Shown: in pieces, positions 13,522 through 55,588 of the stretch
How positions within the stretch are numbered: the stretch's first letter is position 1
Layout: each line of letters starts with the position of its first letter
Assembly: GCA_013203955.1 (NCBI GenBank)
Contig: JABMOY010000140.1
Span: 1,362-65,361, forward strand
Length of the DNA: 64,000 bases
Source: Rhodospirillales bacterium
GTDB taxonomy: Bacteria > Pseudomonadota > Alphaproteobacteria > Rhodospirillales > Casp-alpha2
Direction of reading: 5' to 3'
Position numbers and translations under genes: made by a program
Notes under the pieces: generated by a model
The model's database searches: none
Told to the model about the DNA's origin: nothing
The model's input: the letters and a program-made list of their open reading frames with translations, nothing else

Positions 13522-13542
13522 TGGGCGATTGCACCGTTATAC

Positions 13543-27420: not shown

Positions 27421-27488
27421 TGAAATTTCTCAAAAAAACGTGTTTGTCAAAGACATGCCGTAGGGGCAAGTGTTATAGGGAGCGAGTC
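27421..27488. promoter_or_regulatory. Short divergent intergenic region with the SD for the plus-strand methyltransferase
   Basis: AGGGAG at 27477-27482, 6 nt before ATG 27489. This is the only strand switch inside the glycan locus. Confidence 0.35.
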
Positions 27489-38378: not shown

Positions 38379-39989
38379 TTAAAAGTCGTTTCGGGGGGGC
38401 GGGTCCAGTGTGCGCCGCCATAGGTCTAAGTCAACCGGCGCCATAATCTCATCGAAGGATACCGGCTGCGGTTCACTTGCCGTCTTCAAGGCGCCCTCCA
38501 AACTTTCCGCCGTCACCGGCGCCGCCGCCACCCCGTCGGGCATGATGTCGAGGGCGATGGCATGGCGGGGCAGCAACCGAAAAGACGGTACCCCGGCGAA
38601 TAGTCCTTCCAGCCCCGGCGTACCGGTGGCGTACAACACTGCCGAAATCCCGGCCTGTTGGGGGACGGTGTTAGCGGTGCGTTTCATGGCGCCCGTTTCC
38701 GGGAAGGCGAAGGGGTACATGGGATGGTCCTTGATCAGGAAGCGCCAGCCTTTTTCCGCCAGCGACCCGACGGCCGCCATCATTTCCCGAGTGACGCCGG
38801 GAATCGCCGACAGGGCGACGTAGACGGGACCTTCGGCGTCGAAATGGCCGCCTTCGGGTGCAGACAAGCGAAAGGCGCCACCGATGACGAGCCGGCTTTC
38901 CGGTATGCCCAACCGCGCCAGTTGGGACCGGTAGGCGGGGCCGTTGCAGATGATCGTATCCGGCAGGCTGTCCAGCCCGTCGGGGTTGCTGGCGGGGCTG
39001 AAATTAAACTGGTGCGGGCCGATTACAGCGTGCTGATAACCGGCGGTGCGCACCCCCAGGGTCCGGGCGGTGCGACAGAAGGCCCGTTCCCAGGCGTGAT
39101 TTTCCCACGGCCAGGCGACCACCCGGGGGTACGCCGAGCGCAGCCACCGGTTCTGGCAATGGATTTGCCAGCGGGTCATGGCCGGCCCGCCGCCGCCGTT
39201 TTCCCGGGCCGCCGCCCGCCTGACCAGCCAGCCGTAGGAACCGGCCAGGTCTTCCGGGCCGGGCCGCCAGCGGGTGAAAACCAGGGCCAGGGCGAAAAGC
39301 GGGTTGCCAAAAGCATGTAAGCTTCCGGTCCGCCCATCGCCTACCAGTGCCTTTGCCCGCCCGGCTCGGCAATCGGTGTGCAGCGCACGTGCCAGCGCCG
39401 GAATATCGCCCATCAGGCCGCCGAAATAGGCATCGTAACCATCCGCCGTGCTTGCGGGATGGCCGTAGGCCAGGATGGCCGATTGCGCCTGACCGAGGGT
39501 GCGCCGCTGGCCGGACAGCATTACGGATGAGGCCATGACCCGGACGGTGACGGCAAAGCGGGCCAACAGGCCACGCAGGAATAACCGAAGGCCAGGGAAC
39601 CAAAGCCCGGGCGACTTTCCAGGGTTAACCTCGGGAAGGACCGCCAATTGACGGAATAGCCACGGATCGTCGCAAACAACGAGGGTGGTTTGTCCCTCTT
39701 TCGCCAAACCGGCGACCAACCGGGACCAAGCCAGCATCAGGCCGAAATCCGAACCGTAGGATCCGGCTGTCGGCGTATGGGCTAGGCGCCCCCCCGGCAC
39801 GTTCCCCATGTGCCGGCCTAGCTCCTGCCAGGTGTCGCCGATGGCGCCGAAGGCTTCTTCTAGGCGCCGGGCCGCTTGGGGTAACGCCCTGGTCCGCGCT
39901 AAGGGGACATCGGTCCCAGAAACGGAAAGCCAGACGTCATAGCTTTGGGGGCCCGAAAGATCGCTTGATGTTCGTAACAAGACGGGCAC
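38379..39989 (-). CDS. Hypothetical protein (uncharacterised surface-carbohydrate biosynthesis protein)
   Basis: 536-aa ORF, the longest frame in this interval; the plus-strand ORFs here are shadows. Visibly GC- and Arg/Ala/Gly-rich. The block VVAWPWENHAWERAF...AGYQHAV...ICNGPAY and the C-terminal half suggest a Rossmann/GT-B-like domain, but I recognise no family securely. Confidence 0.5.
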   Translation of the reverse strand: MPVLLRTSSDLSGPQSYDVWLSVSGTDVPLARTRALPQAARRLEEAFGAIGDTWQELGRHMGNVPGGRLAHTPTAGSYGSDFGLMLAWSRLVAGLAKEGQTTLVVCDDPWLFRQLAVLPEVNPGKSPGLWFPGLRLFLRGLLARFAVTVRVMASSVMLSGQRRTLGQAQSAILAYGHPASTADGYDAYFGGLMGDIPALARALHTDCRAGRAKALVGDGRTGSLHAFGNPLFALALVFTRWRPGPEDLAGSYGWLVRRAAARENGGGGPAMTRWQIHCQNRWLRSAYPRVVAWPWENHAWERAFCRTARTLGVRTAGYQHAVIGPHQFNFSPASNPDGLDSLPDTIICNGPAYRSQLARLGIPESRLVIGGAFRLSAPEGGHFDAEGPVYVALSAIPGVTREMMAAVGSLAEKGWRFLIKDHPMYPFAFPETGAMKRTANTVPQQAGISAVLYATGTPGLEGLFAGVPSFRLLPRHAIALDIMPDGVAAAPVTAESLEGALKTASEPQPVSFDEIMAPVDLDLWRRTLDPPPRNDF

Positions 39990-41890: not shown

Positions 41891-42670
41891 TTAAAGCCAA
41901 TCGCCGCCGGTCAGCGGGACCATCTGGCCGGTGATGAAGCCGGCCCAGTTGGACATCAGGTAAACCATCAACGCCGCCGCTTCTTCGGGGTTGCCGCCGC
42001 GCTTAAGCGGCACCATGTCGGCTCGTTCCGCCATGTCCTTGTCTTTTTTGTCATGCCAGCGTTGATGAAAGCCGCTTTCGATAAAACCGAACCGTACACC
42101 GTTGACTAGGATATTGTCGGGCGCCCCTTCGCGGGCCAGCCCCTGGACCAAGCATTCGGTACCACGCTTGGCGATGGCATAAGGAAATGACTGGGCGCTG
42201 CCCCCGTGCAGCGCCGATTCGGTGCCGGTCAGCAAGATGCGCCCGCCAGTTTTCTGGCCATGCATGTGGGCCATGGCGGCGCGGGCAAGGTAAAAGGGCT
42301 GGTTGAGGTTGACGGCCATGTCCTTCTCCCAGTCGTCGGCCGGCATGTCCTGCCAATGGCCGCTGAAATGGATGCCGCCAGATAGCACCACCAAGGCGTC
42401 GATTCCGCCGGCCTTGTCTGCGAATTCATCGACCACAGCGACACAGTCGGCCTCGGACTCAAAAGTTTTTTTCAGGCGGATAATCCTCTCGTCTTCTCCC
42501 TCGAATTCCTTGGTTGAGCCATGGGCGCCGATCATACAATCGGACCCGTCCAGTAACATGGCGACAAGCGCGCGGCCGAGTCCGCCGCTGGCCCCGGTGA
42601 TCAGAATCCGCTGGCCCTTTTCGACGCTCGGAGTCCATTCTGGGCGGCTGAATGTGATTGTAACTGTCAT
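41891..42670 (-). CDS. Short-chain dehydrogenase/reductase (classical SDR)
   Basis: 259 aa. ILITGASGGLGRAL and YAIAKRG (YxxxK). Confidence 0.85.
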   Translation of the reverse strand: MTVTITFSRPEWTPSVEKGQRILITGASGGLGRALVAMLLDGSDCMIGAHGSTKEFEGEDERIIRLKKTFESEADCVAVVDEFADKAGGIDALVVLSGGIHFSGHWQDMPADDWEKDMAVNLNQPFYLARAAMAHMHGQKTGGRILLTGTESALHGGSAQSFPYAIAKRGTECLVQGLAREGAPDNILVNGVRFGFIESGFHQRWHDKKDKDMAERADMVPLKRGGNPEEAAALMVYLMSNWAGFITGQMVPLTGGDWL

Positions 42671-43476
42671 GTGTAAGCCTTTCTCAGCACCTGGGCGCTT
42701 TTTTCGATGTCGGCCAGGGGGTCGTCTTCGTTGGCCATTCGTTGTTCGATGGAGACATAGCCGTCATAGCCGATTTCGTGAAGAGCGGTTCCGAAAAATT
42801 CGTGGTCTATTTTGCCGCTCGTGCCCAAAACGTCCAGACCCGGTTCGTTGGCGTGGAAATGCACCAGCATCTCTTTGACGGCGTCAAAGGTCTCCTTCCT
42901 CGCTTCTTCGTTCTCGACCAGCGCCTTGGCGTCCAGCTGTACGCCAAGCGCCGGGCTATCGATTTCCTTAGCGATGGATAGACTATCGAGGGCCGAGTTT
43001 ATGAAGTCGCTGTCCTTAGGGCCTAGCGGTTCGAAACAGAAGCATGTGCCGTGGGGTTCGGTGCGTTTTGTCAACTCGCCGAAAAAAGCCACCGCCTCGG
43101 CCCGGGCCTCGGGTTCGGGCACCATGCCACGCTTACGCCCGCCGCCATATATAAGAGTCCGCCCGCCTAAGTCCCGGCAAACCTTTGATAGGTGCTCGAG
43201 GAAATCCAGGCTTTCGGCGCGTGCGGCCGGTTCTTTGAAAAGCCCCAAGGAGGGTTGATCAAAAAAAAGCGAATGCAAGCCGACAACGCCCAGCCCGGCA
43301 TCTTCAATTTGCCGCCGGTAATCGGCAACTTGGTCCGCCGTTAGGCCCTTCCAGGTATCTGGCCAAACCCGACTCGGTGCCACTTCGACGGCTTCAAGTC
43401 CCAGGTCCGAAAGCCGCCCAAGTTCCTGGCCGTGATCGAAAGCCGGGAGCGCGATGTTGGAAACGGCAAACCTCAC
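42667..43476 (-). CDS. Xylose-isomerase-like TIM-barrel protein (sugar phosphate isomerase/epimerase family)
   Basis: 269 aa. MRFAVSNIALP...LEAVEVAP N-terminus and the HFHANE metal-site pattern typical of the AP_endonuc_2 fold. Confidence 0.75.
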   Translation of the reverse strand: MRFAVSNIALPAFDHGQELGRLSDLGLEAVEVAPSRVWPDTWKGLTADQVADYRRQIEDAGLGVVGLHSLFFDQPSLGLFKEPAARAESLDFLEHLSKVCRDLGGRTLIYGGGRKRGMVPEPEARAEAVAFFGELTKRTEPHGTCFCFEPLGPKDSDFINSALDSLSIAKEIDSPALGVQLDAKALVENEEARKETFDAVKEMLVHFHANEPGLDVLGTSGKIDHEFFGTALHEIGYDGYVSIEQRMANEDDPLADIEKSAQVLRKAYT

Positions 43477-43479
43477 GCT

Positions 43480-44922
43480 TCAAGTCCGTCCGTAGATGTC
43501 ATCCAGCCTGACGATATCATCTTCACTCAAATAATCGCCGGATTGCACCTCGATCAGCCTGAGCGAGCTTTTTCCTTTGTTTTCCAGCCGGTGATCGGTG
43601 CCGAGAGGAATAAAGGTTGATTCGTTGACGTTGAGTTCAAAGGTCTTATCGCCGCGGGTGACGGTGGCGGTGCCTTCAACGACCACCCAATGTTCGGCGC
43701 GTTTTTCATGGCGTTGCAGGCTGAGCTTGGCGCCCGGGTTCAACATCAACTGCTTGGCTTGAAATTTCTCGCCGCTGTCGATGATTTGGTAATATCCCCA
43801 CGGTCGATAGACGCGACTGGCGGTTTCCGATTCGGTGCGGCCCTGATCCTTCAGCCAATCGGCGATGCGGCGAACGTCCTGGGCATGGTCCTTGCCGACC
43901 ACCAACACCGCGTCGTCGGTGGCGACGACGATGATGTCGTCCAAGCCGACAACGGCGACAAAAGGCTTTTCGCTATGGATGTAAGACCCCCGAACGGAAT
44001 CGGTCATGACGTCGCCGACAATGACGTTTCCGTTCTCGTCCTTTTCGCCGGCTTGCAGCAGCGCCGTCCAGGCACCGACATCGGACCAGCCCATATCCGC
44101 CGGAACGACGGCGGCAGCCTCGGTTTTTTCCATCACCGCATAGTCGATGGAAATGGAGACCGTTGATTTATACGCCGCTTCGTCCAAGCGGAAGAAATCA
44201 AGGTCACGTTTCCCACTGGCGACGGCCTGGCGGCAGGTCTCGACGATGGCCGAATGCGTCTTTTCCAGTTCTTTCAGATAGCGGTCCGCCTGGAACATGA
44301 ACATGCCCGAGTTCCAGGTGTAGCGCCCTTCGGCCAAATAGGCCTTCGCCGTTTCGGCGTCGGGCTTTTCGACGAAACGTTCAACCCGGAAACACCCATC
44401 TGTTCCTTTTATCGGTTCCCCCTGCAGGATATATCCGTAACCGGTTGCTGCCGACATTGGCGCAATGCCGAAGGTGACGAGATGGCCTTTGCGGGCTGCT
44501 TGTTCCGCAACCAGCACCGCGTCTTCGAAGCCCTTCTGGTCGGCGATCACATGATCGGACGGCAACACCATAAGGAGCGCGTCCGGATCATTTTCCAAGG
44601 CAATCAGGGCGGCCGCGGCAATGGCGGGCGCCGTATTGCGGCCCACCGGTTCTAAAACGATCGCTTCCGGCGACAGGCCTAAATCCCTGAACTGTTCGGC
44701 GACAAGAAAACGGTGGTCTTGGTTACAGACCACCAAGGGCGCACCGAAACCGTCACCGGAAACCCGCTTTACGGTTTCTTGAAACAGCGTGACGTCTGAA
44801 TGAATTTTCAAGAACTGTTTCGGGCGTGCCGAACGCGAAAGCGGCCACAGCCGGCTGCCGACGCCGCCGGAAAGGACTACGGGGGTTATGGCCCCGATTT
44901 TTTGGTCAGATGGGGGTGTCAT
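43480..44922 (-). CDS. manC: Mannose-1-phosphate guanylyltransferase / mannose-6-phosphate isomerase (type II PMI-GMP)
   Basis: 480 aa. VVLSGGVGSRLWPLSR nucleotidyltransferase motif, C-terminal cupin with RPWGYY and GTDHRLENKG, ending in DDIVRLDDIYGR. Confidence 0.92.
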   Translation of the reverse strand: MTPPSDQKIGAITPVVLSGGVGSRLWPLSRSARPKQFLKIHSDVTLFQETVKRVSGDGFGAPLVVCNQDHRFLVAEQFRDLGLSPEAIVLEPVGRNTAPAIAAAALIALENDPDALLMVLPSDHVIADQKGFEDAVLVAEQAARKGHLVTFGIAPMSAATGYGYILQGEPIKGTDGCFRVERFVEKPDAETAKAYLAEGRYTWNSGMFMFQADRYLKELEKTHSAIVETCRQAVASGKRDLDFFRLDEAAYKSTVSISIDYAVMEKTEAAAVVPADMGWSDVGAWTALLQAGEKDENGNVIVGDVMTDSVRGSYIHSEKPFVAVVGLDDIIVVATDDAVLVVGKDHAQDVRRIADWLKDQGRTESETASRVYRPWGYYQIIDSGEKFQAKQLMLNPGAKLSLQRHEKRAEHWVVVEGTATVTRGDKTFELNVNESTFIPLGTDHRLENKGKSSLRLIEVQSGDYLSEDDIVRLDDIYGRT

Positions 44923-44936
44923 GGTTGGATCGGTTT

Positions 44937-45455
44937 CTAGCCTTCGCGCGCACGGTTTAAAATTTCAAGGGCGACCGGGCGCAAGTCGGCAAGGTCCTGG
45001 CTGTTGTCGACGACCATATCCGGGGACCGGGGCGGGGAGAACTCCATATCGACGCCGACTACGTTTTTGACTTCACCGGCCAAGGCGGGCGCATAAAGGT
45101 TTTTTTGGTCGCGGGCATAAAGGGTTTCCATAGGCACTTTGACGTAAACCTCGAAATATTTGGAAAGAGTCTTGCGGTTTCTTTCCCGCAGCTCTTCGAA
45201 AGAGGAAATGGTGCAGCAAATAACGTTGATGCCCTGCCTGTCCAGCCAAACGCACAGGTCGCAATACCTTTCGGCGATATAGTGCCGACCTAGTTCCGTG
45301 TATGCGTTGTTTCCCGTGGATGATTTTAGAATATCGCGGATTTCATCGCCGTCGACGATTACCGTATTCTGCTCTTCCACAGTCCATAGTTCGTAAAGGT
45401 GGCGGCCGATGGTTGTTTTACCGGACGCCGATAAGCCCGTAAGCCAAATGATCAC
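44937..45455 (-). CDS. APS-kinase-like P-loop kinase (divergent CysC homologue)
   Basis: 172 aa with a GTG start at 45455 preceded by GGGGGA. P-loop IWLTGLSASGKTT and DGDEIR motif. The LGFS/ENIRR block of canonical APS kinases is not conserved. Confidence 0.65.
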   Translation of the reverse strand: MIIWLTGLSASGKTTIGRHLYELWTVEEQNTVIVDGDEIRDILKSSTGNNAYTELGRHYIAERYCDLCVWLDRQGINVICCTISSFEELRERNRKTLSKYFEVYVKVPMETLYARDQKNLYAPALAGEVKNVVGVDMEFSPPRSPDMVVDNSQDLADLRPVALEILNRAREG

Positions 45456-45466
45456 GTTATTTTCCC

Positions 45467-45481
45467 CCGGTGTGTTTCAAT
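45467..45481. repeat. Direct repeat copy 1 (CCGGTGTGTTTCAAT)
   Basis: Shares CCGG plus the exact 10-mer GTGTTTCAAT with 45549-45562. The copies bracket the 102-nt gap between the Fe-ADH and APS-kinase-like genes. Confidence 0.3.
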
Positions 45482-45548
45482 GGAAATCTGTTTCGCCAAA
45501 TTTTTTTTATTCGGCTTCAACGAACTGATGGGGGTGGTTAAAACAAAA

Positions 45549-45562
45549 CCGGGTGTTTCAAT
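45549..45562. repeat. Direct repeat copy 2 (CCGGGTGTTTCAAT)
   Basis: See copy 1. This copy overlaps the stop codon of the Fe-ADH gene (45558-45560). Confidence 0.3.
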
Positions 45563-46718
45563 TGTTGACGGCGGCATCCAGCTCGCTGGCTGGACAAAAA
45601 TAGTTCAGTGCAAGCCGGGCAATTCGTCGTGCAGCCTCTTCATCAACGCTGCGAATGTTGTTAGCGGCGCGGGAACGGGTGATGAGATTACCTTCAAGGG
45701 TATCTGCGACATCGGGCGTTACATACGCGGCGAGAAGCGGGCCGACGCCCAGTTCCCCGAACCATTTCTCCAGATGTTCCGGGATTTCATCGACGGAACA
45801 CTCGAGCCCCTCGGCGATAGGAAGAAGCCGGCTGGGGTCATCTTTCATGTTGTAGCGGGCGATTTCGGGCAAGGTGAAACTGCAGGCAAGGCCATGCGGA
45901 ACGTCGAAATGAGCGGTAAAGGGATAACTGATGGAATGGGCGGCGGCAGTCTGGGTCGTTCCCATGGTCAGGCCTGACAGAAGCGAGGCTATTTGTACCC
46001 GGCTTCTGAGTACGATGTCGTTTGGTTCTCTCATTGCCGCCAACAGATGGCGGCGGAGCGTACGGATGGCCTTTTCCGCCAGCGCATCCGTGACTTCCGT
46101 ATGGCGCCTGTTCCACACCGATTCCATGGCATGGCTAAGCGCGTCCAACCCCGTAGCAAGGGTCAGGTTTCCGGGCATGGAAACGCACAAAGCTGGGTCA
46201 AGAACGGCGTTGCTGGGATAGAGGCTCGTATGGGAAACCGAATGCTTGATCCTATCTTCCCCCCAGATGGTTCCCCAGCAGGTGACTTCCGACCCGGTGC
46301 CGGATGTCGTTGGCACCGCTATGATGGGTATTGGGGCAAAAGAGTCCGGTAGCGGTTCGCCATCCCTGAGATGGGTCATGAAGGGCCTAAGGTTGTTGCT
46401 CAGGGCCTTAAGGGCGACGGCGCCTTTGGCGGCGTCGATGACGCTGCCGCCGCCGAGGGCAACGACGGTATCGACATCCGGCAACTCATCTGCCAATCCG
46501 ACCACGGTCGGGACATCGGGGTTGCTACAGACGTTCGCCAGCAGCGCCCGGGGTGGGCCGCAACGGTTCTGGATTTTGCCGACTGCACCTCGCATCAGCC
46601 AGCCGGCGCTGGTAACCAGGACCCAGGACTTGCCATCCAGGAGGCCCGCCAGTGCCTCATCGAAGTCCTGGCCTTGGGCAACCACGGTCGGACAATGGAA
46701 GGGACGCTTTAGAACCAT
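45558..46718 (-). CDS. Iron-containing alcohol dehydrogenase (phosphonoacetaldehyde-reductase-like by context)
   Basis: 386 aa. VVALGGGSVIDAAKG and His-rich metal-site segments (LDALSHAMESVWN, AAAHSISYP). The start overlaps the upstream HEPD/MPnS-family gene by 10 nt. Confidence 0.8.
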   Translation of the reverse strand: MVLKRPFHCPTVVAQGQDFDEALAGLLDGKSWVLVTSAGWLMRGAVGKIQNRCGPPRALLANVCSNPDVPTVVGLADELPDVDTVVALGGGSVIDAAKGAVALKALSNNLRPFMTHLRDGEPLPDSFAPIPIIAVPTTSGTGSEVTCWGTIWGEDRIKHSVSHTSLYPSNAVLDPALCVSMPGNLTLATGLDALSHAMESVWNRRHTEVTDALAEKAIRTLRRHLLAAMREPNDIVLRSRVQIASLLSGLTMGTTQTAAAHSISYPFTAHFDVPHGLACSFTLPEIARYNMKDDPSRLLPIAEGLECSVDEIPEHLEKWFGELGVGPLLAAYVTPDVADTLEGNLITRSRAANNIRSVDEEAARRIARLALNYFCPASELDAAVNN

Positions 46719-48100
46719 TGTTTGGTCTCTCCGGCGACGCGGCTGCGGCCCTCAACGGCAAAGGTTGAGAATTCATCGATGACGGCATCGCTTAGCGTTC
46801 CCGGTATGCGGACAATGACAAGCCTACCCTCGTCCTGATCCGGGGCAACGGAGAAAGAATGGCTAACCATCGGTCGAATATAGGCAGAATCGCCGGGGTT
46901 GATAATGTCCGCATTTTCGTTTTCGCCCTCGTTCCAAAGAACGGAGACGGGCACGCCGCCGTAATTGTAGACATATTGATGAAGGCTGTGGCGGAATTGC
47001 CCTTCGGTCGTATCCACGCCGGACAGTACGCTGAGATCGAATCCCTTTAGGCCCGGCTGGCGCCGGGTGCGGGCTAATTCACGCATCCGGTAAGCAGGAT
47101 TATTGACTTTCGGATAAAGACGCTCGGGGGTATCACCGGCATAGCGGACGGTCACAGGACCTTCATCTTCCAGCGGCGTCACCATCAAGTCTTCGGCCCG
47201 GATGTGAAGGGCCTTGGCCAGGGCGACCGTTTCGTCGGCTGTCGGCACCTCGTTTCCGCCTGTCAACATGTCGATGCGGGTCCGATCCATCCCGCCCGCT
47301 AGCAACCGGTCGGCCAGGTCTTGTCGGTTGAGGGACTCGGCGGCTAGATACCTGTCGAGCCGCGCTCGGAACGCGCCGATGCTGTTCGTCGGATTTCCGG
47401 CCAATTCGTCGGCGCTGTTAGGGCCGATCAATCCGAATTGGCCCAGCGCCCGGCGAACATCACCGCCGTAGGTGACGGCGAGGATCAGGCCGGGCCGGTC
47501 GGGGTTACGACCGGCGAACGAGTGCGGCACAAAAGGAGAAATGTAATTGGAATCACCGGTATTCATTTCCGTGCAGTAGCCCTGCCCGGCGATCCGCCAA
47601 TAAAAGTTCACTTCGCCGATGAAGAACGTGCATTGATGCATCAGGTGGCCGTGGTTATAGGCGACATCCGGGTTGTCCGGGTCGGCATCGTCGACGAGGC
47701 GAATCGGCTGTATCCATTCCGGCTTGAAAGGCGCGGTACGGCTCATGGCGGTATCACGGTATTCGTAATAGGGCGTAAGATCGCCGTCGCGGTCCTTGCG
47801 ATCAAAGAAGCGTAGGGTCGCCCGGCTTTCTTCGTCCCGCATGATTTTCACGCCGGATTCGGTATCGTCAGGTTCCACCCAAAGGTCGGCCAGGGAAACC
47901 GGATATTTATCCGCCATGGCACGGATGATCGCTTCCGCCGTTTCCACGGGGGAGCGACCATCGATGGCGGCATGAATGGTATCAATATCGAATTCTATTT
48001 CTTCCGCTAGGGCCTCGGGGGTGCGCTTTAGGTCGTTGGCTTCGGAAAAGATTCGGGAACCCAATGCCGCTAAATGTCTTTTATCGCGAGTCTCATTCAT
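46709..48100 (-). CDS. mpnS: HEPD/MPnS-family non-haem iron oxygenase (tandem HTH-like plus cupin repeats); candidate methylphosphonate synthase
   Basis: 463 aa. Two repeats of helical HTH-like segment plus cupin. The first cupin carries AYNHGH(152)LMHQ(156)CTFFIGEVNF(166)...NYI(187)SPFVPH(193), the His-x3-Gln...His pattern with Phe/Ile neighbours that I recall for MPnS. The second cupin lacks an equivalent ligand set. Confidence 0.6.
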   Translation of the reverse strand: MNETRDKRHLAALGSRIFSEANDLKRTPEALAEEIEFDIDTIHAAIDGRSPVETAEAIIRAMADKYPVSLADLWVEPDDTESGVKIMRDEESRATLRFFDRKDRDGDLTPYYEYRDTAMSRTAPFKPEWIQPIRLVDDADPDNPDVAYNHGHLMHQCTFFIGEVNFYWRIAGQGYCTEMNTGDSNYISPFVPHSFAGRNPDRPGLILAVTYGGDVRRALGQFGLIGPNSADELAGNPTNSIGAFRARLDRYLAAESLNRQDLADRLLAGGMDRTRIDMLTGGNEVPTADETVALAKALHIRAEDLMVTPLEDEGPVTVRYAGDTPERLYPKVNNPAYRMRELARTRRQPGLKGFDLSVLSGVDTTEGQFRHSLHQYVYNYGGVPVSVLWNEGENENADIINPGDSAYIRPMVSHSFSVAPDQDEGRLVIVRIPGTLSDAVIDEFSTFAVEGRSRVAGETKQWF

Positions 48101-48110
48101 CGGCCGCGCC

Positions 48111-49223
48111 TTATTCCTTGAATACCTTTAGGGCTTTTTCATAATCCTCGACGGTGTCGATTTCCTTCCAGCCGCGCTCAATCATGACGCAGTGGACAGG
48201 AACGCCTAGATCAACCATTTCCTGGATCATGTCGGTCAGATATGCTTTCTGGAAAACCGCTGCACGCTGGAAAGGTTTGTCCCAGAAAACTTCCTTGGCG
48301 CGGTGGAAGTGTTTCTTGAAAATTCCGGCGCCCCTTGGCGACAATTTCATCATGCCGATGAATTCGCCATGAACGTCGTGCTTATCGGCAAAAATTTTTC
48401 CAATTTCAACGACGTTATTGTTGGCGTCGAAGATGACCGTTTCGGCTTCTTCCAAGGGGTGGTCATTGCGGTCGACGTAGTACCCGCGCCAATCAAGATC
48501 GACGACGACGGAGATATCGGCTTCAGACCGCAGGAGTCGTTGGACGACCTGACTCTCAAATAGGATGTCGGAATAGGAAACGATGATATGCCCGTCCAAT
48601 TCTTTTTCCGCATAGAACAGTGAATTGAGGATGTTGTTGTCATGGTAATCAGGGTTCTCGTAATACCGAATGCCCGGGTAGTTGATCTTTTCCTTCGCAA
48701 AACCACGGATCAGGGCGACATTATTTAGCCCGCATTCCTGAAACGCCGCCAATTGCCGCTGCAACAGGGTCTGGCCATCGAAATCAAGCATGCATTTAGG
48801 CTGTGACTCGGTGTGCGCTTTCAACCGGCTTCCCATGCCGGCGGCGATGATCAGCACCTTGGTATTGGAGGACGTTATGGTTTCTCTCATTTCGTCTATC
48901 TGCTCGCCGGAAAGATTGAATTTGTGTATAGCGCGGATTAGGGGAATTGTTTCGGGCCTGTCGCGCATAATAGGGTCGACATCGGGGGCAACGGCGTTTT
49001 TCGACTGACCGGCAAGATCGAAAAGTTTTTCGGTGTCGGCATCCAGAATTTCAGCAAGGGATTCGATGGCTTCAACCCTCGGAGCAACACGTTTGTTTTT
49101 TTCGATATCATTCAGATAAGAAGGCGAAACCTTCAGCGCACGCGCCAGTTCCCGCTGTCCAATTTCCCTTTGCATCCTTAAGGACCGGACATATTCGCCA
49201 AAAGTCTCTTTTCCTTCATGCAT
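48111..49223 (-). CDS. XRE-type HTH domain fused to a LicC/PntC-like nucleotidyltransferase
   Basis: 370 aa. N-terminal HTH (GQRELARALKVSPSYLNDIEKNKR). A nucleotidyltransferase domain follows from about residue 120 (VLIIAAGMGSRLK...). Visibly lower GC than neighbouring genes. Confidence 0.8.
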   Translation of the reverse strand: MHEGKETFGEYVRSLRMQREIGQRELARALKVSPSYLNDIEKNKRVAPRVEAIESLAEILDADTEKLFDLAGQSKNAVAPDVDPIMRDRPETIPLIRAIHKFNLSGEQIDEMRETITSSNTKVLIIAAGMGSRLKAHTESQPKCMLDFDGQTLLQRQLAAFQECGLNNVALIRGFAKEKINYPGIRYYENPDYHDNNILNSLFYAEKELDGHIIVSYSDILFESQVVQRLLRSEADISVVVDLDWRGYYVDRNDHPLEEAETVIFDANNNVVEIGKIFADKHDVHGEFIGMMKLSPRGAGIFKKHFHRAKEVFWDKPFQRAAVFQKAYLTDMIQEMVDLGVPVHCVMIERGWKEIDTVEDYEKALKVFKE

Positions 49224-49305: not shown

Positions 49306-51150
49306 TTACTTTCCAATGGCTTGATCTCTCTTGCAGCCTGCAGCGACGGCATCTCTGCCAATATCGCCGAAACAATCGATGATGCGTTGGTCGGTGATTT
49401 CAGGAATCTCGGCCATGCGTTCCGCAATCAGGGCATTGAAGCGGGAAATCAGTTGGTGGTCGGGGCGGTACAGGTTGTGGGTTTCCGACGGGTCGTCCCG
49501 GATATTGAACAGTTCTGGGCCATCGGGGCTGAACTTGTCGGCCGGGTCCTTGTATTCGCGCCAGCAATAAAGGTGGTCTTTCGTGCGCACGGCGAAATAA
49601 AGGGGTCGGTGGTCGAACAGGCAATTGCCGCCGTAGAAGGTTTCCAGCAACACATGATCCCTATCGCCGCCTCCCGGTTCGGTGACCGCTAGGCCCTCCC
49701 AGTCCGGGGCCGGGTCGACCCCTGCCAGGGCGGCTACCGTCGGCGGCATGTCGGCGATGGTGAACAGCCCGTCGAGGCGCGTCTTGCCGATTTTCGGGTG
49801 GGAAAAAACCATCGGCACCCGCGTGTTGTGGGTGTAGTGCAGGAAATAATGGCCGAAATCGCCGTGATCGCCCAACTCCTCTCCGTGGTCGCCGGCAACG
49901 ATAATCAATGTGTCGTCCCTGAGGCCTAGCCGTTCGACGGCGTCGACGATGCGCCCGATCTCATCATCTGTTGAGCGCACGGCGCAATCGTAAAGGGCGG
50001 AAAAGGCATCGCCGTCTTGTTTTCTTTTCGGCTTGCCGTCGAAGGACAGGGAAGGATCGATATCCGGAGAATAACCGAGTGCCTCCAGCAGCCGGGGGGT
50101 GTGCCGATACCACTTTCGGCCCGGCCCTGAAACATAAGGGTGGTGAGTGTCCATGAAGTGGGTCCAGATGAAAAAGGGCTTCGTTTTATCCCGCTGCTCC
50201 AGCAGGCCGATGACCTTGTCGGCCAGGGAGTGGGCATCGGGGTAGATCTTGAAGCGGTTTTGCCGCGCCCGCGCCCATTTGGCATTTACCCAGCCAAGCA
50301 ACAGGTTGCCGGCGCGGAAAAAAAGCTCTGCGATCAGCCTGGAAGGTTTCCGGCAATAACGCCATTCCCTGACCAGCCAGCGGTTCATCCATTCCTTGCC
50401 GACCGGCGTCGGGATCAGGTGGCGGCGGATATAGGCAATCTTACCGGCCTGGTATTCCTGCCGGTGGCGACCGATGGCGGCCTTGATCTTGGCGAAGTCG
50501 TAGCGCGAATTGACCAGCGCCGAATCAGGAAAGTCGCGGTCGATTTCATCGCCCCGCTCAAGTATCAGGTCGCAATAAACCGACGTGTTGTCAAAAAACC
50601 GCAACAGCACGGGATCGACTTTGCCTAACAGTTCGCCGTCGTTGATGTTGCCTTTCTCAAACTCCAGAAGGGTGTTGCGGATCATCGCCAGGGCGACGCC
50701 CGGCAAGGAGTTCAGCCCGAAGGTTTGGATTTCCTCGTCAATGCCTTCGTCATATCCGAAAAACCTGTTGACCCAATGAAGCGTGGTCAAGCACGTGGTT
50801 TTGTAGCCAGCGTCATGGAACCGCTTGAACACGGTTTCGGGCCGGCCTTCGGCGCCGTAATCGTATCCTCCGTAGGACAAGGGGCGGCTTGACGTGAACA
50901 TCTGCGCGCTGGCGGCCTGGGTGAAGGTGGCCATGGAAAAAGCGTTTTCACAGACGACGGCCGTTTTGGCCAGCCGTTCCAGGGTGGGGGTCGTCGGACG
51001 GTCGTAGCCATGCAGGCTGGTACGGTCGGCGCGTAGCGCGTCGACGGTCAGCATCAGGATGTTGGGTTGTTGATGTCGATGATCCATCAAATTATATCCA
51101 GGAGAAGGCTTTTGGCGTCGTTCTGGGAATCGCCGAAACGGAATTCCCAA
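49306..51150 (-). CDS. Alkaline-phosphatase-superfamily (sulfatase-fold) protein lacking the formylglycine motif
   Basis: 614 aa. Sulfatase-like N-terminus PNILMLTVDALRAD...TPTLERLA...NAFSMATFTQAASAQMFTSSRP and a later VAGDHGEELGDHG block. The position of C-x-P-x-R is occupied by T-Q-A-A-S. An alternative start is M22 at 51087. Confidence 0.75.
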   Translation of the reverse strand: MGIPFRRFPERRQKPSPGYNLMDHRHQQPNILMLTVDALRADRTSLHGYDRPTTPTLERLAKTAVVCENAFSMATFTQAASAQMFTSSRPLSYGGYDYGAEGRPETVFKRFHDAGYKTTCLTTLHWVNRFFGYDEGIDEEIQTFGLNSLPGVALAMIRNTLLEFEKGNINDGELLGKVDPVLLRFFDNTSVYCDLILERGDEIDRDFPDSALVNSRYDFAKIKAAIGRHRQEYQAGKIAYIRRHLIPTPVGKEWMNRWLVREWRYCRKPSRLIAELFFRAGNLLLGWVNAKWARARQNRFKIYPDAHSLADKVIGLLEQRDKTKPFFIWTHFMDTHHPYVSGPGRKWYRHTPRLLEALGYSPDIDPSLSFDGKPKRKQDGDAFSALYDCAVRSTDDEIGRIVDAVERLGLRDDTLIIVAGDHGEELGDHGDFGHYFLHYTHNTRVPMVFSHPKIGKTRLDGLFTIADMPPTVAALAGVDPAPDWEGLAVTEPGGGDRDHVLLETFYGGNCLFDHRPLYFAVRTKDHLYCWREYKDPADKFSPDGPELFNIRDDPSETHNLYRPDHQLISRFNALIAERMAEIPEITDQRIIDCFGDIGRDAVAAGCKRDQAIGK

Positions 51151-51188: not shown

Positions 51189-52985
51189 TCAAAGCTTGGC
51201 GAGCTCGACAAGGTTGTTGAAGTTTGAATTGCGTGCGGCCAGTTCCTCGAATGTCCCGATATCGTCAATGCGACCGTCTTTCAAAAAAACCACGCGATCG
51301 CATGCTCGAACCGTACTTAGCCGGTGGGCAATGATGATCATGGTTTTTTCGCCGCGGAATTTTTCGATGGCCTGATTGACCTCCTGCTCGGTTTCGCTAT
51401 CGAGCGAAGACGTCGCTTCGTCAAAAATAAGAACCCCAGGATCACGGTAGAGAGCTCGGGCGATGCCCACGCGTTGGCGTTGCCCGCCGGAGAGGCGGGT
51501 TCCCCGGTCGCCTAATTGCGTTTCCAGGCCATCGGGCAGACCCCTAACGAAGCTCTCCAACTGCGCCAGGCGGACGGCGTTTTGTATCATGTCCTCGCTG
51601 ATCTCATGGTCAGCCAGCCCAAAGGCAATGTTACGGCGCAGGGTGTCATCGGTAATGTATATGGATTGTGGCACGTATCCGATTTGGCGGCGCCAGGCGC
51701 TAGGTGCGTCCCGTATATTCGTGCCATCGACGGTCACAGCGCCCGAGTCCGGAACCAAAAGGCTAAGCACTATATCGACCAGAGTGGTTTTGCCCGAACC
51801 GGACCGCCCCACCAAGCCCATGGACTCGCCCTTGTTTAAGACGAGATCAATGTCCTTCAAAACGGCACCGTTGCCTTGGTCATAGCTAAAGGACACTCCA
51901 TTTATAGATAGCGCCGTTTTAAATGCCAGGGTCTGGCCGTCGTCTTCCGACTCTTCGTCCGGGTTGGCACGGAATGCATGAAGGTCTTGATAGATGAGTT
52001 CGACGGCGTGCGACCCACTCTTGATGCCGTTAAGGGCGATGATGATCCTGTTCATCGACGGAATCATGCGAAAGGCGGCAATCGCGAAAAGGGTGATTGA
52101 CGAAAGAATTTCCGCCGATCGGCCGCCGCTGGAAAGAATGGATATGACAGCCAATAGGACGGCGGCGACAATCACGGACTCGACCCACAGTCGCGGCGCC
52201 CCGCTCATTGCCCTGAGCTTGGTTCGGATTCCGGCAAGTTCCAGACAGGGGCTTTCAAAGCTTTCGAGAATGTAACGCTGCCGGCCCAGAATTTTCACCT
52301 CTTTGATGTTGTGAAATCCCTGCTGCAGGGATTTTAGGACTTCCCCAGTCGCTTTTTGCTCGCGCATACCCCAGGCCGAGAACCGACTTTTTGAAAAGCT
52401 GAAAAATATGGCGACCGCCGCGCCTAGCACGAGAAACGCGCCAAGGGTCAACATCGGTTCTGCCATGAGCAGGACAACGATCAGCGCGACGATCATGACG
52501 GCTTCCGAAGCAAGGTTGATGAAACCCGTAATCACGGTGCCGAAAATAGCCGTCACAGAGCCGGTAATGTTGCGAATTAAATCTGCAGAATTCCGTCTCA
52601 AATGCAGGGAATAGGCGCCTTTAAGGTAACTGTCCAACAGGCGTACGGCCAACGAAGCTTCGTTGGCGGCGGTAAAGCTTGCCTGAAAGTAATAAAATCC
52701 GATAAGGATCAGGTTCTTGATAAGGAACCCCGCAAGGAGACCGAATGACATGAGGATCAATGCCTCGGTTTCGTTCTCGACAAAGGCCGGGCCGACTAAC
52801 TTTCCGACCACCGCAATATTTTGTATCTGGGTGGGGTCAATCAGTGCTTGGACGAAAACGAATATTAACCCGATTCCAATCGCTTCGAGCATGCCGGCAA
52901 CCAAAGCCAAAATGCTGACCGCCCCGGCATGCCACAGGGTTTTTCGCTCGATCATGGCGAGGCATTTTCGGAGTTCAGTCAACAT
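51189..52985 (-). CDS. ABC exporter, fused permease-ATPase (MsbA/PglK/Wzk-like)
   Basis: 598 aa. Six-helix TMD followed by an NBD with Walker A GRSGSGKTT, signature LSGGQRQR and Walker B LIFDEATSSLD. Confidence 0.9.
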   Translation of the reverse strand: MLTELRKCLAMIERKTLWHAGAVSILALVAGMLEAIGIGLIFVFVQALIDPTQIQNIAVVGKLVGPAFVENETEALILMSFGLLAGFLIKNLILIGFYYFQASFTAANEASLAVRLLDSYLKGAYSLHLRRNSADLIRNITGSVTAIFGTVITGFINLASEAVMIVALIVVLLMAEPMLTLGAFLVLGAAVAIFFSFSKSRFSAWGMREQKATGEVLKSLQQGFHNIKEVKILGRQRYILESFESPCLELAGIRTKLRAMSGAPRLWVESVIVAAVLLAVISILSSGGRSAEILSSITLFAIAAFRMIPSMNRIIIALNGIKSGSHAVELIYQDLHAFRANPDEESEDDGQTLAFKTALSINGVSFSYDQGNGAVLKDIDLVLNKGESMGLVGRSGSGKTTLVDIVLSLLVPDSGAVTVDGTNIRDAPSAWRRQIGYVPQSIYITDDTLRRNIAFGLADHEISEDMIQNAVRLAQLESFVRGLPDGLETQLGDRGTRLSGGQRQRVGIARALYRDPGVLIFDEATSSLDSETEQEVNQAIEKFRGEKTMIIIAHRLSTVRACDRVVFLKDGRIDDIGTFEELAARNSNFNNLVELAKL

Positions 52986-53069: not shown

Positions 53070-53627
53070 TCATGGCCGATCCTTGCCGTCGATTTCAAGG
53101 CGCGAACGGATAAAAGCATATAACGTGCCGACGGCGTCCTCTGGGCTTTGATGGGCGGTGTCGAGTTCAAGGTCGGGCGATTGCGGCGGCTCGTATACAC
53201 TACCTGAAGAAAAGCCGATCATGCCGTCCATTTCACCTCCAGCCGCCTTGGCGTACAGGCCCTTGACGTCGCGACCGACGACCGTGTCCAGATCCGCATT
53301 GCAGAAGATTTCAAAAAAACCGGGGCCCAGCTTTTCGCGCGCGTCCCGCCGGCTCTCGCCATAAGGTGAAATAATCGGCACCAAGATGACGTCGTAAAGC
53401 CCTCGTTGTTCGGCGCAGATTTCGGCGATTAACATGTTGTTTTCCTTAACCTCGGGCTCGCTGAAACCGAGGTGACGGTGAAAGCGGCGGCGTACGTCGT
53501 CGCCGTCCAGGGTCAAGACGTCGAGCCCGTCCTTGGTCAGCTGTTCCCTGACGCCGTCGGCGATGGTGCTTTTTCCCGCCCCTGACAGCCCTGTGAACCA
53601 GATAACGCCGCCCGGCTTGCTCGTCAT
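53070..53627 (-). CDS. cysC: Adenylyl-sulfate (APS) kinase
   Basis: 185 aa from ATG 53627, which forms an ATGA overlap with the upstream stop. VIWFTGLSGAGKSTIA, LDGDDVRR, LGFS, IISPYGESR. The track start at 53762 adds an Arg-rich extension overlapping the upstream gene. Confidence 0.88.
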   Translation of the reverse strand: MTSKPGGVIWFTGLSGAGKSTIADGVREQLTKDGLDVLTLDGDDVRRRFHRHLGFSEPEVKENNMLIAEICAEQRGLYDVILVPIISPYGESRRDAREKLGPGFFEIFCNADLDTVVGRDVKGLYAKAAGGEMDGMIGFSSGSVYEPPQSPDLELDTAHQSPEDAVGTLYAFIRSRLEIDGKDRP

Positions 53628-55588
53628 GACGTCGAGGCCTTCGGAGGGAATACAGGCGTAATGCCGATATCGCCCAGGCGGTCGAACAGGTCCCGGGCGG
53701 CGTTCGTTCCGTCTTCGCTGGCGGCGGGAATGAAATAGCCGCAGCCCATGTTTTTCAGGCAAAGGGCGGCGAAGACCATTTCCCGGGGACCGCTGAGCCG
53801 GCCATAGGCAGCGAACCCGCCGAGAACCACCCGGCCTTCGGGATAGATCCCCGATTGCAAGGCCGCTTGATAGCTTTCCATCACCGGGTCGGGTTGGGAT
53901 TCGCCCGGCGCATCGGGGTCGATGGACGGGCTGATGTAGAGCCCGTCGGCCTTGGTTGAAGCCAAGGCATCAATGTGGAAATTCTGCAATTTCTGGGTGG
54001 ACGAGGCTTCACCGTAAAACCCGGCGACCCGGCTCCAGCCCTTCTGGTTGAAGATAAAACGGGTCTGGGCCGGGAAAAGCTGGTAATGGCGCCACGGCGA
54101 TGGAATTCGATTGACCAGCGTTACCGGCCCGGCGACGGCCATGTCCCCGGCGGCCAGCAACCGCTGCACGCCCGGATGGTCCCGAGCGTCGGTCTCGAAC
54201 AAGGCTTTGGCCGTCTTGTCGAAATCAAGCGGATAAATTTCCGTGACATCCATGAAGGCGTGGGCCTCGCGGCTATCCGACGTCAGCGCGATCCTGTCCC
54301 CGGGGGCGAAGGCTTTGGTCTTTTCCACCATCGTCTGCAAAACGACCGGCAGGGTCCAGGCGAGGCCATCGTTAAGTTGGTATTTGGTCAAAACCGATTC
54401 CAAGGTCGCCTGGTCCATGAAGCCGGTCAAAGGGGAATAGGTGCCCAGCGCAATCTGCTGGCAATCGAGAAGATCCCTGGCCGAAACCTGGAGCCGGGGC
54501 AGGCCATCCAACGCTTCGCCATCGGCGGCCTCGCGGTGGACTAAGGCGCCACCGTGCGGTTCGGGCAGCAGCGACACGGGGTCAAGGTGGTAGCGGTCGG
54601 TTTCGTCGTCGTCCCGATTTTCGAAGACGTTGATCATCTTCGCCACCATGTTGGCGCAGCGCACCGGGTATTGGCCGATGGCCGTTTCCGCCGCCAAGAC
54701 GACCCCGTCGGCACCGTCCAAGAAGGTATTGTAGATGTCGTTGACTTCGGCCCGGGTGGGCACGGGCTCTGTGACCATCGATTCAAGCAGGTTGGTTGCC
54801 ACATAGACCTTTCGGTTTTTGGCGCCGGCCGTTTTGATAATCTTTTTCTGGTAGGCGGGGATGAGTTCGATGGGAACTTCGCGCGATAAATCGCCCCGGT
54901 CGATCAATATGGCATCGGACAGTTCGGCGATTTCTTCAAGATTGTCGACGCCGTTGCGGCATTCGATCTTGGAAATGATGGAGGAACCTTTTCCGGTCAG
55001 CGTTCGAAGCTCCCTTACGTCCTTTCCGGAATTGGCGAACGATAGGGCGAAATGAGTGACTCCTAAGTCGACGCCGATGGCGACTGCCGCTCGATCCTTT
55101 TCCGTCAGCGCTGGCATAGTGATGGGTCGGTCCACGGTAACGGCCTTATTGCGACCAAATTTTCCGCCGTTGAGAACCCTCATGGAGAGCGTATCGGCGG
55201 TGCAATCGATGACCTGAACCAGGACGGCGTTGAAATCGATGCTGATTATGTCGCCGACTTGGAATTCCGAAATGATGCCGTGGGGATAAAAATTGAAATC
55301 TTTGCCGTTTCCCGGAACCGTTTCCCGGTGCGCCCGGACGATGGCATTTTCATCCATTTGAAAGGTTGGCTCCGTTAGGTCCCCGGTGCGGATCTGCGCG
55401 CCTTCCGTATCCAAGGACAGCGGCACCCGGGTTAACGAGGTAACGAAACGGATGGCGTCGGCGACGTCGTCCAGCTTAGTGTGGGACAGGTTGATCCTGA
55501 ACAACGTCACGCCCAGCTCTTCCAGCCGGGCAATGACGTGCTCGTTCATGGAAGCCGGGCCGAGGGTGCAGAGAATTTCTTTGGTCAT
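53624..55588 (-). CDS. Fusion protein: pyruvate-kinase-like barrel (about aa 1-335) plus ATP-sulfurylase-like domain with degenerate catalytic motifs (about aa 340-654)
   Basis: PK motifs: ILCTLGPAS, RINLSH, LDTEGAQIRTG, ISKIE, IDRGDLSREVP, ATNLLESM, PTRAEVND, LAAETA. Sat-like part: GTYSPLTGFM, GPREMVFAALCLKNMGCGYFI. GFYGEASSTQ replaces QTRNPxHxxH, and PAASEDG replaces GRDHAG. Confidence 0.8.
   Translation of the reverse strand: MTKEILCTLGPASMNEHVIARLEELGVTLFRINLSHTKLDDVADAIRFVTSLTRVPLSLDTEGAQIRTGDLTEPTFQMDENAIVRAHRETVPGNGKDFNFYPHGIISEFQVGDIISIDFNAVLVQVIDCTADTLSMRVLNGGKFGRNKAVTVDRPITMPALTEKDRAAVAIGVDLGVTHFALSFANSGKDVRELRTLTGKGSSIISKIECRNGVDNLEEIAELSDAILIDRGDLSREVPIELIPAYQKKIIKTAGAKNRKVYVATNLLESMVTEPVPTRAEVNDIYNTFLDGADGVVLAAETAIGQYPVRCANMVAKMINVFENRDDDETDRYHLDPVSLLPEPHGGALVHREAADGEALDGLPRLQVSARDLLDCQQIALGTYSPLTGFMDQATLESVLTKYQLNDGLAWTLPVVLQTMVEKTKAFAPGDRIALTSDSREAHAFMDVTEIYPLDFDKTAKALFETDARDHPGVQRLLAAGDMAVAGPVTLVNRIPSPWRHYQLFPAQTRFIFNQKGWSRVAGFYGEASSTQKLQNFHIDALASTKADGLYISPSIDPDAPGESQPDPVMESYQAALQSGIYPEGRVVLGGFAAYGRLSGPREMVFAALCLKNMGCGYFIPAASEDGTNAARDLFDRLGDIGITPVFPPKASTS

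Follow-up and report, generated by a model that had tools for sequence, protein, structure and literature searches.

A divergent APS-kinase homologue in methylphosphonate gene clusters suggests a PAPS-like 3'-phosphorylated donor for bacterial surface sugars

In the 64,000-nucleotide stretch of DNA analysed here (the window; Rhodospirillales bacterium, GenBank assembly GCA_013203955.1, contig JABMOY010000140.1, forward-strand positions 1,362 to 65,361), a single, large surface-glycan locus extends on the minus strand from about 11.6 kb to the window end, the exception being a methyltransferase gene (27420-28394). The subject of this report is a 172-aa homologue of adenosine 5'-phosphosulfate (APS) kinase encoded in this locus (44937-45455), which on the minus strand follows the genes for a methylphosphonate synthase (MPnS; 463 aa, 46709-48100) and an iron-containing alcohol dehydrogenase of the phosphonoacetaldehyde-reductase type (Fe-ADH; 45558-46718), in that order. 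An earlier inspection of the letters alone (the sequence-only reading) had placed the kinase directly downstream of this pair, with which the minus-strand gene order agrees, and had proposed that it makes a methylphosphonate donor resembling 3'-phosphoadenosine 5'-phosphosulfate (PAPS). The two kinase open reading frames (ORFs) that it had reported, this one and a second at 53070-53627, were found at those coordinates and with the motifs described, save for the strand, which is minus for both. A gap of 102 bp (45456-45557) separates the Fe-ADH gene from the kinase gene and holds a GGGGGA run resembling a ribosome-binding (Shine-Dalgarno) site about 9 nt upstream of the GTG start; no terminator-like site was found between the two genes on the minus strand.

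The kinase scores 108.9 bits against Pfam APS_kinase, and in the PDB it is closest to APS kinases (E 8e-24), but on the apsK profile TIGR00455 it reaches 112.4 bits, under the equivalog cut-off of 138.7. On NF004041 (PRK05541; cut-off 127) it scores 173.7 bits, or 175 bits in a six-frame genome search. Kinases of relatives that lie next to a Cj1418-like gene score 144-204 bits on this profile, and CysC-type copies, CysN-CysC fusions included, reach at most about 127 bits, one of them lying exactly at the cut-off. A search of 5.8 billion proteins found 522 relatives, and several homologues with 50-59% identity bear the JGI name 'cytidine diphosphoramidate kinase'. This is the activity of Cj1415 in the O-methyl phosphoramidate pathway of Campylobacter jejuni, as Taylor & Raushel 2018 are cited in two later papers (PMC11800397, PMC6429109); glutamine, ATP and CTP are the starting compounds from which Cj1415-Cj1418 jointly build CDP-phosphoramidate 3'-phosphate (PMC11800397).

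The sequence-only reading had remarked that the protein keeps the P-loop (GLSASGKTT) and DGDEIR and lacks the LGFS/ENIRR block, and this is borne out: GNNAYTELGRHYIAER stands in place of the LGFS..DRxENIRR segment of CysC, with the Tyr and the Arg five residues on kept and the remainder altered. We compared alignment columns across 28 + 23 + 38 sequences, which comprise Cj1415-type kinases of phosphoramidate and phosphonate contexts as well as CysC proteins. The catalytic apparatus (P-loop, DGD, two Arg and the RDxK lid) is common to all, and the window kinase retains G7-K13, D35/D37, R40, R57, E102, Y121 and K118 of the RDxK lid. At position 132 the window kinase (NVVGV) has a Val, as do 83-86% of Cj1415-type rows, versus the Phe of FTGI in 84% of CysC rows, and position 100 is Tyr in Cj1415-type proteins versus the Phe of F(I/V)E in CysC. 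In APS kinase the adenine of APS is stacked between two residues, of which the FTGI Phe is one (PMC4373884), and at the first adenine-stacking position the window kinase has a Tyr (AYT) instead of the Phe of LGF. It thus shares with CysC proteins (TIGR00455; 4BZQ, 2OFW, 1M7G) the fold, the P-loop, the DGD Asp, both substrate Arg and the RDxKGLY lid, and is 30% identical to the CysC-type copy of the window, whereas it departs from them in NVVGV for FTGI (one adenine-stacking Phe lost), (NN)AYT for LGFS and HYIAE for ENIRR, and in having neither an N-terminal extension nor sulfurylase linkage. No column in the same comparison separates phosphoramidate-context from phosphonate-context kinases. 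The dN/dS relative to the copy in locus L006, described below, is 0.085, with dS near saturation, and by this measure of the coding sequences the kinase is under purifying selection.

Maximum likelihood trees with Shimodaira-Hasegawa-like approximate likelihood ratio (SH-aLRT) support agree with the profile scores. The first tree held nine artefact rows, which had picked up the GTPase P-loop of CysN fusions and were left out of later trees. The window kinase falls into a clade (SH-aLRT 99-100) with the kinases of three MPnS loci (L006, L007 and L142) and one kinase of a phosphoramidate cassette (L008_9914), and outside the CysC clade (38 rows, SH-aLRT 98-99), which includes both other kinases of the genome. 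Phosphonate-context kinases are scattered among phosphoramidate-context ones, and the well-supported branches require at least three to four switches. The sequence-only reading had likened the protein to the Campylobacter CDP-phosphoramidate kinase and proposed a phylogeny; in the trees, whose rows include phosphoramidate-cassette kinases in lieu of C. jejuni Cj1415 itself, it groups with the latter kinases and apart from CysC, and NF004041, the JGI names and the cassette contexts all point the same way. Judged by these sequence comparisons, the 172-aa kinase is very probably of the Cj1415 type and not a CysC.

Contigs with relatives of the kinase carry a four-gene cassette as in the Campylobacter pathway, comprising a PEP-utilizer of about 780 aa (a Cj1418-like glutamine kinase), a class-I glutamine amidotransferase (GATase; Cj1417-like), a nucleoside triphosphate (NTP) transferase (Cj1416-like) and the kinase. 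In a kinase-centred genome scan, limited to one genome per species and to the best 80 loci, Cj1418-like genes, nearly always with Cj1417/Cj1416-like ones, accompany the kinase in 23 of the 80 (27 with four further contigs). One such locus is from Helicobacter (L035), the nearest named stand-in for Cj1415, and no Campylobacter locus was among the best 80. Akin to Cj1415, the window kinase is small (about 170 aa), has the APS-kinase fold, starts six residues ahead of the P-loop and is paired with a Cj1416-like nucleotidyltransferase in a surface-glycan locus, and the chemistry proposed for it would likewise be the 3'-phosphorylation of a CDP-like nucleotide. NF004041 takes in both the window kinase and kinases of Cj1418/1417/1416 cassettes, that of Helicobacter included, the link to Cj1415 running through the cassette homologues and the JGI names. 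Unlike the Campylobacter system, the window genome has no detected Cj1418 glutamine kinase or Cj1417 gamma-glutamyl-CDP-amidate hydrolase, its head-group genes lead to a C-P compound, and its partner nucleotidyltransferase has an N-terminal helix-turn-helix (HTH).

Two side observations concern these cassettes. The phosphoramidate locus L008 holds two Cj1415-type kinases (10001-10546 and 13074-13607), and the copy nearest the window clade is preceded by a 463-aa protein that matches no Pfam family and followed by the glutamine kinase. In addition, three kinase-bearing phosphonate loci (L034:8982-9770, L086:1283-2092 and L154:10037-10795) share with 18 phosphoramidate cassettes a family of S-adenosylmethionine (SAM) methyltransferases, presumably Cj1419/1420-like, which hints at O-methylated phosphonate decorations.

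The genes upstream of the window kinase point to methylphosphonate. Fe-ADH has the Pfam domains Fe-ADH and ADH_Fe_C, and among NCBIfam models it matches TIGR03405 (Phn_Fe-ADH) best, with a score of 280 bits that stays under the equivalog cut-off of 423.7. MPnS matches the Nitrosopumilus maritimus MPnS (6b9s) best in the PDB, with 275.8 bits versus 231.2 bits for the hydroxyethylphosphonate dioxygenase HEPD (6b9r), and in the alignment to 6b9s it keeps the His/Gln/His iron ligands (NmMPnS H148, Q152 and H190). Opposite NmMPnS F162 and I184 it has Phe and Ile, reportedly the pair that holds the Gln ligand (Born et al. 2017). The same ligand and Phe/Ile residues are kept in MPnS of loci L006, L031 and L049. 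Next upstream on the minus strand is an XRE-HTH plus NTP_transf_3 nucleotidyltransferase (48111-49223; domains from Pfam). Over 249 aa it shares 36% identity with the Cj1416-like protein of the phosphoramidate cassette L009, and over 124 aa it shares 40% with the Ppm-fused nucleotidyltransferase domain of contig C78. The sequence-only reading had cast this protein as the partner that makes the nucleotide-phosphonate, and the homology to Cj1416/PntC-like cytidylyltransferases sustains that candidacy.

The assembly of the window (G000) is a fragmented metagenome-assembled genome (MAG), 96% complete with 7% contamination. A tblastn search of it with the L009 proteins found no match to the Cj1418-like protein and only a weak generic GATase match to the Cj1417-like one. 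It does contain two Ppm-nucleotidyltransferase fusions and Ppd, on contigs C78 and C240. The fusion genes (C78:17040-18461 and C240:2-2361) are 78% identical in DNA and each is truncated at a contig end, with Ppd after the C240 copy; the two copies could reflect paralogy, a strain mixture or a break in the assembly, in which case a link to the window locus may be concealed.

The association of the kinase with MPnS recurs. Locus L006 has the order ABC exporter, sulfatase, HTH-NTP transferase, MPnS, Fe-ADH, a 251-aa gene, kinase, TIM-barrel isomerase and short-chain dehydrogenase (SDR), with a kinase 78% identical to that of the window. The 251-aa gene, of unknown family (no Pfam match), lies exactly between Fe-ADH and kinase (L006:9228-9983); homologues are near the kinase in L142 and L025, and it is absent from the window. 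In a Nitrospirales MAG (L031, 3982-5664), Fe-ADH and a Cj1415-type kinase form one in-frame 560-aa protein, encoded between MPnS and a sulfatase-fold gene, and equivalent stop-free Fe-ADH-kinase frames exist in two Nitrospirales-like MPnS clusters (L151:11343-13040 and L154:5246-6934). A SAR86 locus (L049) has the order methyltransferase, kinase, MPnS, NTP transferase, Ppm, Ppd and Fe-ADH. Three loci that have Ppm/Ppd but no MPnS (L034, L036, L086), from two Clostridia MAGs and one Actinoplanes MAG, also have a Cj1415-type kinase alongside. Metagenome contigs scanned for MPnS yielded 80 loci, 22 with at least 3 kb on each side, in which a kinase was called Cj1415-type when that profile outscored the CysC profile: 8 of the 22 well-flanked loci have a Cj1415-type kinase, one has a CysC type and 13 have none. 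Where MPnS is at least 45% identical to that of the window, the Cj1415-type kinase is present in six of eight loci, and the commonest order in kinase-bearing MPnS loci is NTP transferase, MPnS, Fe-ADH, kinase. As a separate observation, a kinase 69-70% identical to ours (L007:10001-10516) has DGN for the catalytic DGD and lies among several transposase genes with a fragmentary MPnS adjoining; from these features, the cluster is probably decaying.

Within the order, the same flanking genes are found with either head group. NF004041 was passed in 11 of 61 genomes surveyed, this one included and the CysN-CysC fusion at the cut-off among them, and in seven of the 61 the kinase lies beside a Cj1418-like gene. 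In G013, of the same genus, the order is Cj1418, Cj1417, Cj1416, sulfatase-fold protein (48% identical to that of the window), kinase (52%), an unassigned gene and TIM-barrel isomerase (76%), and a Rhodospirillales MAG (L025) has the same layout plus an ABC exporter and an SDR. One shared gene set (exporter, sulfatase-fold protein, kinase, isomerase and SDR) thus takes either a P-N or a P-C head-group module, an exchange to be expected were both donors accepted by the kinase and by the enzyme downstream of it.

The members of this set in the window are an ABC exporter of the MsbA/PglK-like kind (51189-52985; assigned from its translation, with homologues in L006, where it is annotated ABC_membrane plus ABC_tran, and in L025, L127 and L049), a xylose-isomerase-like TIM-barrel protein (42667-43476; Pfam AP_endonuc_2), whose homologues beside the kinase are 82% (L006), 76% (G013), 62% (G059) and 56% (L025) identical, and an SDR (41891-42670; Pfam adh_short), with homologues in L006 (85%), G059 (64%) and L025 (68%), all on the minus strand. 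G013 also carries MPnS and Fe-ADH, on a contig other than that of its phosphoramidate cassette and flanking genes and with no adjacent kinase or nucleotidyltransferase (C106, C139; L207, L205), and in G012 (C2, L206) the MPnS pair is present and the Cj1415-type kinase absent.

For the transfer step, the candidate phosphonyl transferase in the window is a sulfatase-fold protein of the alkaline-phosphatase superfamily (49306-51150, minus strand; Pfam Sulfatase 134 bits), whose start is probably the Met of MDHRHQQ at about 51087. It has a Thr at the formylglycine/nucleophile position and no C/S-x-P-x-R motif (aTfTqaaS opposite lSGPSR in the alignment to 5g2v), retains DHG metal-ligand motifs as read from the sequence, has no evident signal peptide, and gives weak N-terminal matches to the EptA/CptA phosphoethanolamine-transferase models. 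Homologues occur at kinase loci of G013, L025, L006, L031, L118, L120 and L151, directly after the kinase in L118 and L120 and close by in L151, L031 and G013. That this protein is the transferase is possible, though somewhat less likely than not. The sequence-only reading had recognised no sulfotransferase motif in the window: neither Pfam scans of all large window ORFs (9997-63591) nor, on contig C123, a six-frame genome search (PF13469 and PF00685) found one, and the latter search, which that reading had proposed, recovered four ordinary sulfotransferases elsewhere in the genome. Two weak tblastn matches to sulfotransferases, at 19744-20067 and 23167-23832, were traced to glycosyltransferase domains of the GT2 family, and no window homologue was found of the large unknown proteins of L008/L009 that might correspond to Cj1421/1422-like transferases.

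Other loci do pair the kinase with a sulfotransferase fold. L127 has the order Sulfotransfer_3 protein (49.6 bits), kinase, HTH-NTP transferase (62% identical to that of the window), MPnS, Fe-ADH and ABC exporter, with no match to a sulfurylase in the locus, and the same sulfotransferase-like family lies beside the kinase in phosphoramidate loci L039, L042, L047, L027 and L029, and in L007. We regard a sulfotransferase fold adjoining a 3'-kinase, with no sulfurylase match in the locus, as the strongest circumstantial support for a PAPS-like donor. The window genome has a single member of this family, a 514-aa protein in a second glycan locus (C147:22165-23709) that is 25% identical over 373 aa to the L127 protein.

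The sequence-only reading had called the second kinase (53070-53627; alternative TTG start at 53762) a canonical CysC. Its motifs GLSGAGKST, DGDD, LGFS and ISPY, a TIGR00455 score of 156.5 bits (above 138.7) and its place inside the CysC clade uphold the family assignment; 'canonical' does not fit its very long branch (2.0-2.3 substitutions per site) or its changes in the APS site (V/K for Arg of 'DRxENIRR', NNMLI for NIRRI and GMIGF for DFTGI). Its gene overlaps the end of a minus-strand gene (53624-55588) for a fusion of a pyruvate-kinase (PK) barrel, PUA_2 and an ATP-sulfurylase-like domain (Pfam), the last of which has, in the alignment to 8a8d, GEASSTQKLQNFH at the QTRNxPHxGH site and AASEDG at the GRDHAG site and, judged by the loss of these catalytic motifs, is dead. 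Elsewhere the genome encodes a Sat with a full score (C113) and a typical CysC (C226). The nearest relative of the second kinase sits in an MPnS locus (L183), and L151 has sulfurylase and PK-CysC genes near MPnS, so the two-kinase arrangement recurs and is not peculiar to the window. CysC-type kinases lie near MPnS in L183, L151, L143 and L144, in the first two of these together with PK or sulfurylase genes.

Of the remaining neighbours, a mannose-1-phosphate guanylyltransferase/mannose-6-phosphate isomerase gene (43480-44922, minus strand; TIGR01479, 667.5 bits) begins 14 bp downstream of the kinase gene, and two ORFs inside the glycan locus, at 38379-39989 (536 aa) and 30040-31065 (341 aa), gave no match in the Pfam scan.

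The pathway that we propose would begin with Ppm and Ppd, encoded on other contigs, which would supply phosphonoacetaldehyde; Fe-ADH would reduce this to 2-hydroxyethylphosphonate (2-HEP), and MPnS would convert 2-HEP to methylphosphonate (MPn). The HTH-nucleotidyltransferase would then join methylphosphonate and CTP to CMP-methylphosphonate (CMP-MPn), Cyd-O-P(O2)-O-P(O)(O-)(CH3), on which the kinase, with ATP, would place a 3'-phosphate, giving a PAPS-like donor. A transferase, for which the candidates are the cytoplasmic Thr-nucleophile sulfatase-fold protein here and the sulfotransferase-fold protein in other loci, would pass the methylphosphonyl group to a sugar with cytidine 3',5'-bisphosphate as the leaving group, and the ABC exporter would flip the decorated glycan. 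We infer the substrate, the cytidine base, the 3' position and the identity of the transferase, and the whole reading rests entirely on comparative genomics. From chemical reasoning, CMP-methylphosphonate is an isostere of CDP-amidate, with -CH3 for -NH2 on the terminal phosphorus, so one kinase type could serve both, in keeping with the lack of a column that separates the two contexts. A phosphonate substrate is likely given that no glutamine kinase or amidate hydrolase was found, that Ppm, Ppd, Fe-ADH, MPnS and a Cj1416-like transferase are present, that MPnS and the kinase recur together and that the modules are swapped. We consider it likely that the kinase is functionally tied to the phosphonate cassette, and, going by gene content, we lean towards CMP-methylphosphonate as the specific compound that it 3'-phosphorylates.

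An approximately unbiased (AU) test in which the window kinase was held with the CysC rows did not reject that placement (p = 0.26); it probes only the attachment of the long CysC stem, and we give it no weight in either direction. Several points weigh against this proposal: ppm and ppd are unlinked to the cluster in this fragmented MAG with its contamination; and the base specificity of the HTH-nucleotidyltransferase is not readable from its sequence. The window has no sulfotransferase-fold gene, and a transferase role of the sulfatase-fold protein is conjecture. Finally, the 13 of 22 well-flanked MPnS loci with no Cj1415-type kinase within 10 kb, together with the MPnS and Fe-ADH genes of G012 and G013 that have no adjacent kinase, indicate that 3'-phosphorylation is no general requirement for methylphosphonate attachment.

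The kinase might instead act on another cytidylylated phosphonate, for example CMP-2-hydroxyethylphosphonate (CMP-HEP) before MPnS, or on several head groups with little selectivity, which would leave the mechanism unchanged. CMP-HEP is processed in fosfomycin biosynthesis. The kinase is fused to the 2-HEP-making Fe-ADH in L031, L151 and L154 and lies beside Ppm/Ppd in three loci that lack MPnS, and an 'adenylsulfate kinase' has been noted beside ppm-ppd in Campylobacter (PMC8942020). We nevertheless hold this to be rather unlikely, since the window has an MPnS gene in direct linkage and since, among isosteres of CDP-amidate, the known substrate, CMP-MPn comes closest; moreover, free 2-HEP is a substrate of the N. 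maritimus MPnS in vitro. An acceptor unrelated to phosphonate, such as a nucleotide sugar or a CDP-alcohol of the glycan pathway, would fit the company that the kinase keeps with the TIM-barrel isomerase and the SDR of unknown substrate (window, L006, G013, G059 and L025) and the position of one L008 kinase (kinase A) apart from the nucleotidyltransferase. It is improbable, however, in that a Cj1416/PntC-type transferase and a P-N or P-C module are paired with the kinase in nearly every locus examined and most kinase loci have neither isomerase nor SDR.

The finding of a P-N module within the same flanking genes in G013 and L025 also invites the view that the kinase is a leftover of a phosphoramidate-to-MPn swap, with no role in MPn metabolism or serving CDP-amidate from an unrecognised route; the L007 copy with DGN among transposases and the many MPnS clusters with no kinase would suit it. 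Against this stand strong purifying selection, the intact catalytic residues, an association with MPnS that is independent and recurrent in Nitrospirales, SAR86 and other loci, fusions included, and the failure to find Cj1418/Cj1417 homologues in a 96%-complete genome, all of which make it quite improbable. An ordinary APS kinase isozyme, providing PAPS for sulfation of the same glycan, is highly improbable: the fold and the best PDB matches are those of APS kinases, Sat, a further CysC and no fewer than four sulfotransferases are encoded in the genome, and the divergent CysC forms, with the PK-sulfurylase-like fusion, a PAPS-type pair 8 kb off, but the kinase is under the apsK cut-off and outside the CysC clade, the second adenine-stacking Phe is missing, its relatives are linked to cytidylyltransferase cassettes and not to sulfurylases, and L006 retains the kinase with no CysC/sulfurylase pair. 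We therefore keep to CMP-methylphosphonate 3'-phosphorylation as the preferred reading.

As in PntC-type systems (Rice et al. 2019, PMC6697681) and the N. maritimus MPnS cluster, the phosphonate would be turned into a CMP conjugate by an NTP_transf_3-type (LicC-like) enzyme, and the window genome likewise has Ppm-nucleotidyltransferase fusions, with sulfatase-fold genes nearby; unlike in the PntC scheme, the 3'-phosphorylation proposed here would be an extra step, and that paper on nucleotidyl activation of phosphonates nowhere mentions a kinase (PMC6697681). MPnS neighbourhoods have been described to include transferases, choline kinase and arylsulfatase (Lockwood et al. 2022), and the Campylobacter 'adenylsulfate kinase' was mentioned in passing and without interpretation (Li and Horsman 2022, PMC8942020). 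Our literature searches found no paper proposing a 3'-phosphorylated methylphosphonate donor and no mention of CMP-methylphosphonate.

We are evenly divided on whether 3'-phospho-CMP-methylphosphonate exists as a metabolite and serves as a new group-transfer cofactor of the PAPS-like kind. It would belong to a family of 'pCp-X' donors (X being amidophosphate, methylphosphonate or other phosphonates), made by interchangeable head-group modules together with a Cj1416/Cj1415-type enzyme pair and spent by transferases of the sulfotransferase fold or the Thr-nucleophile sulfatase fold. If true, a 3'-phosphorylated cytidine donor would offer a concrete, assayable step and extend the logic of Campylobacter phosphoramidate to C-P chemistry, account for 'APS kinase' and sulfotransferase- or sulfatase-like genes in phosphonate clusters with no working sulfurylase, and correct the widespread mis-annotation of such genes as 'adenylyl-sulfate kinase'; G013 and the window genome provide a natural contrast of P-N and MPn modules within shared flanking genes as a basis for enzymology. 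Methylphosphonate esters are a proposed source of methane in oxygenated ocean water, and to our knowledge the mode of attachment of methylphosphonate to macromolecules is not known. If the pCp-X reading is true, it would define an enzymatic route for part of the methylphosphonate esters of the ocean, the proposed precursor of aerobic marine methane. Our analysis suggests that some marine bacteria may attach methylphosphonate to surface sugars via a previously undescribed, PAPS-like 3'-phosphorylated donor.

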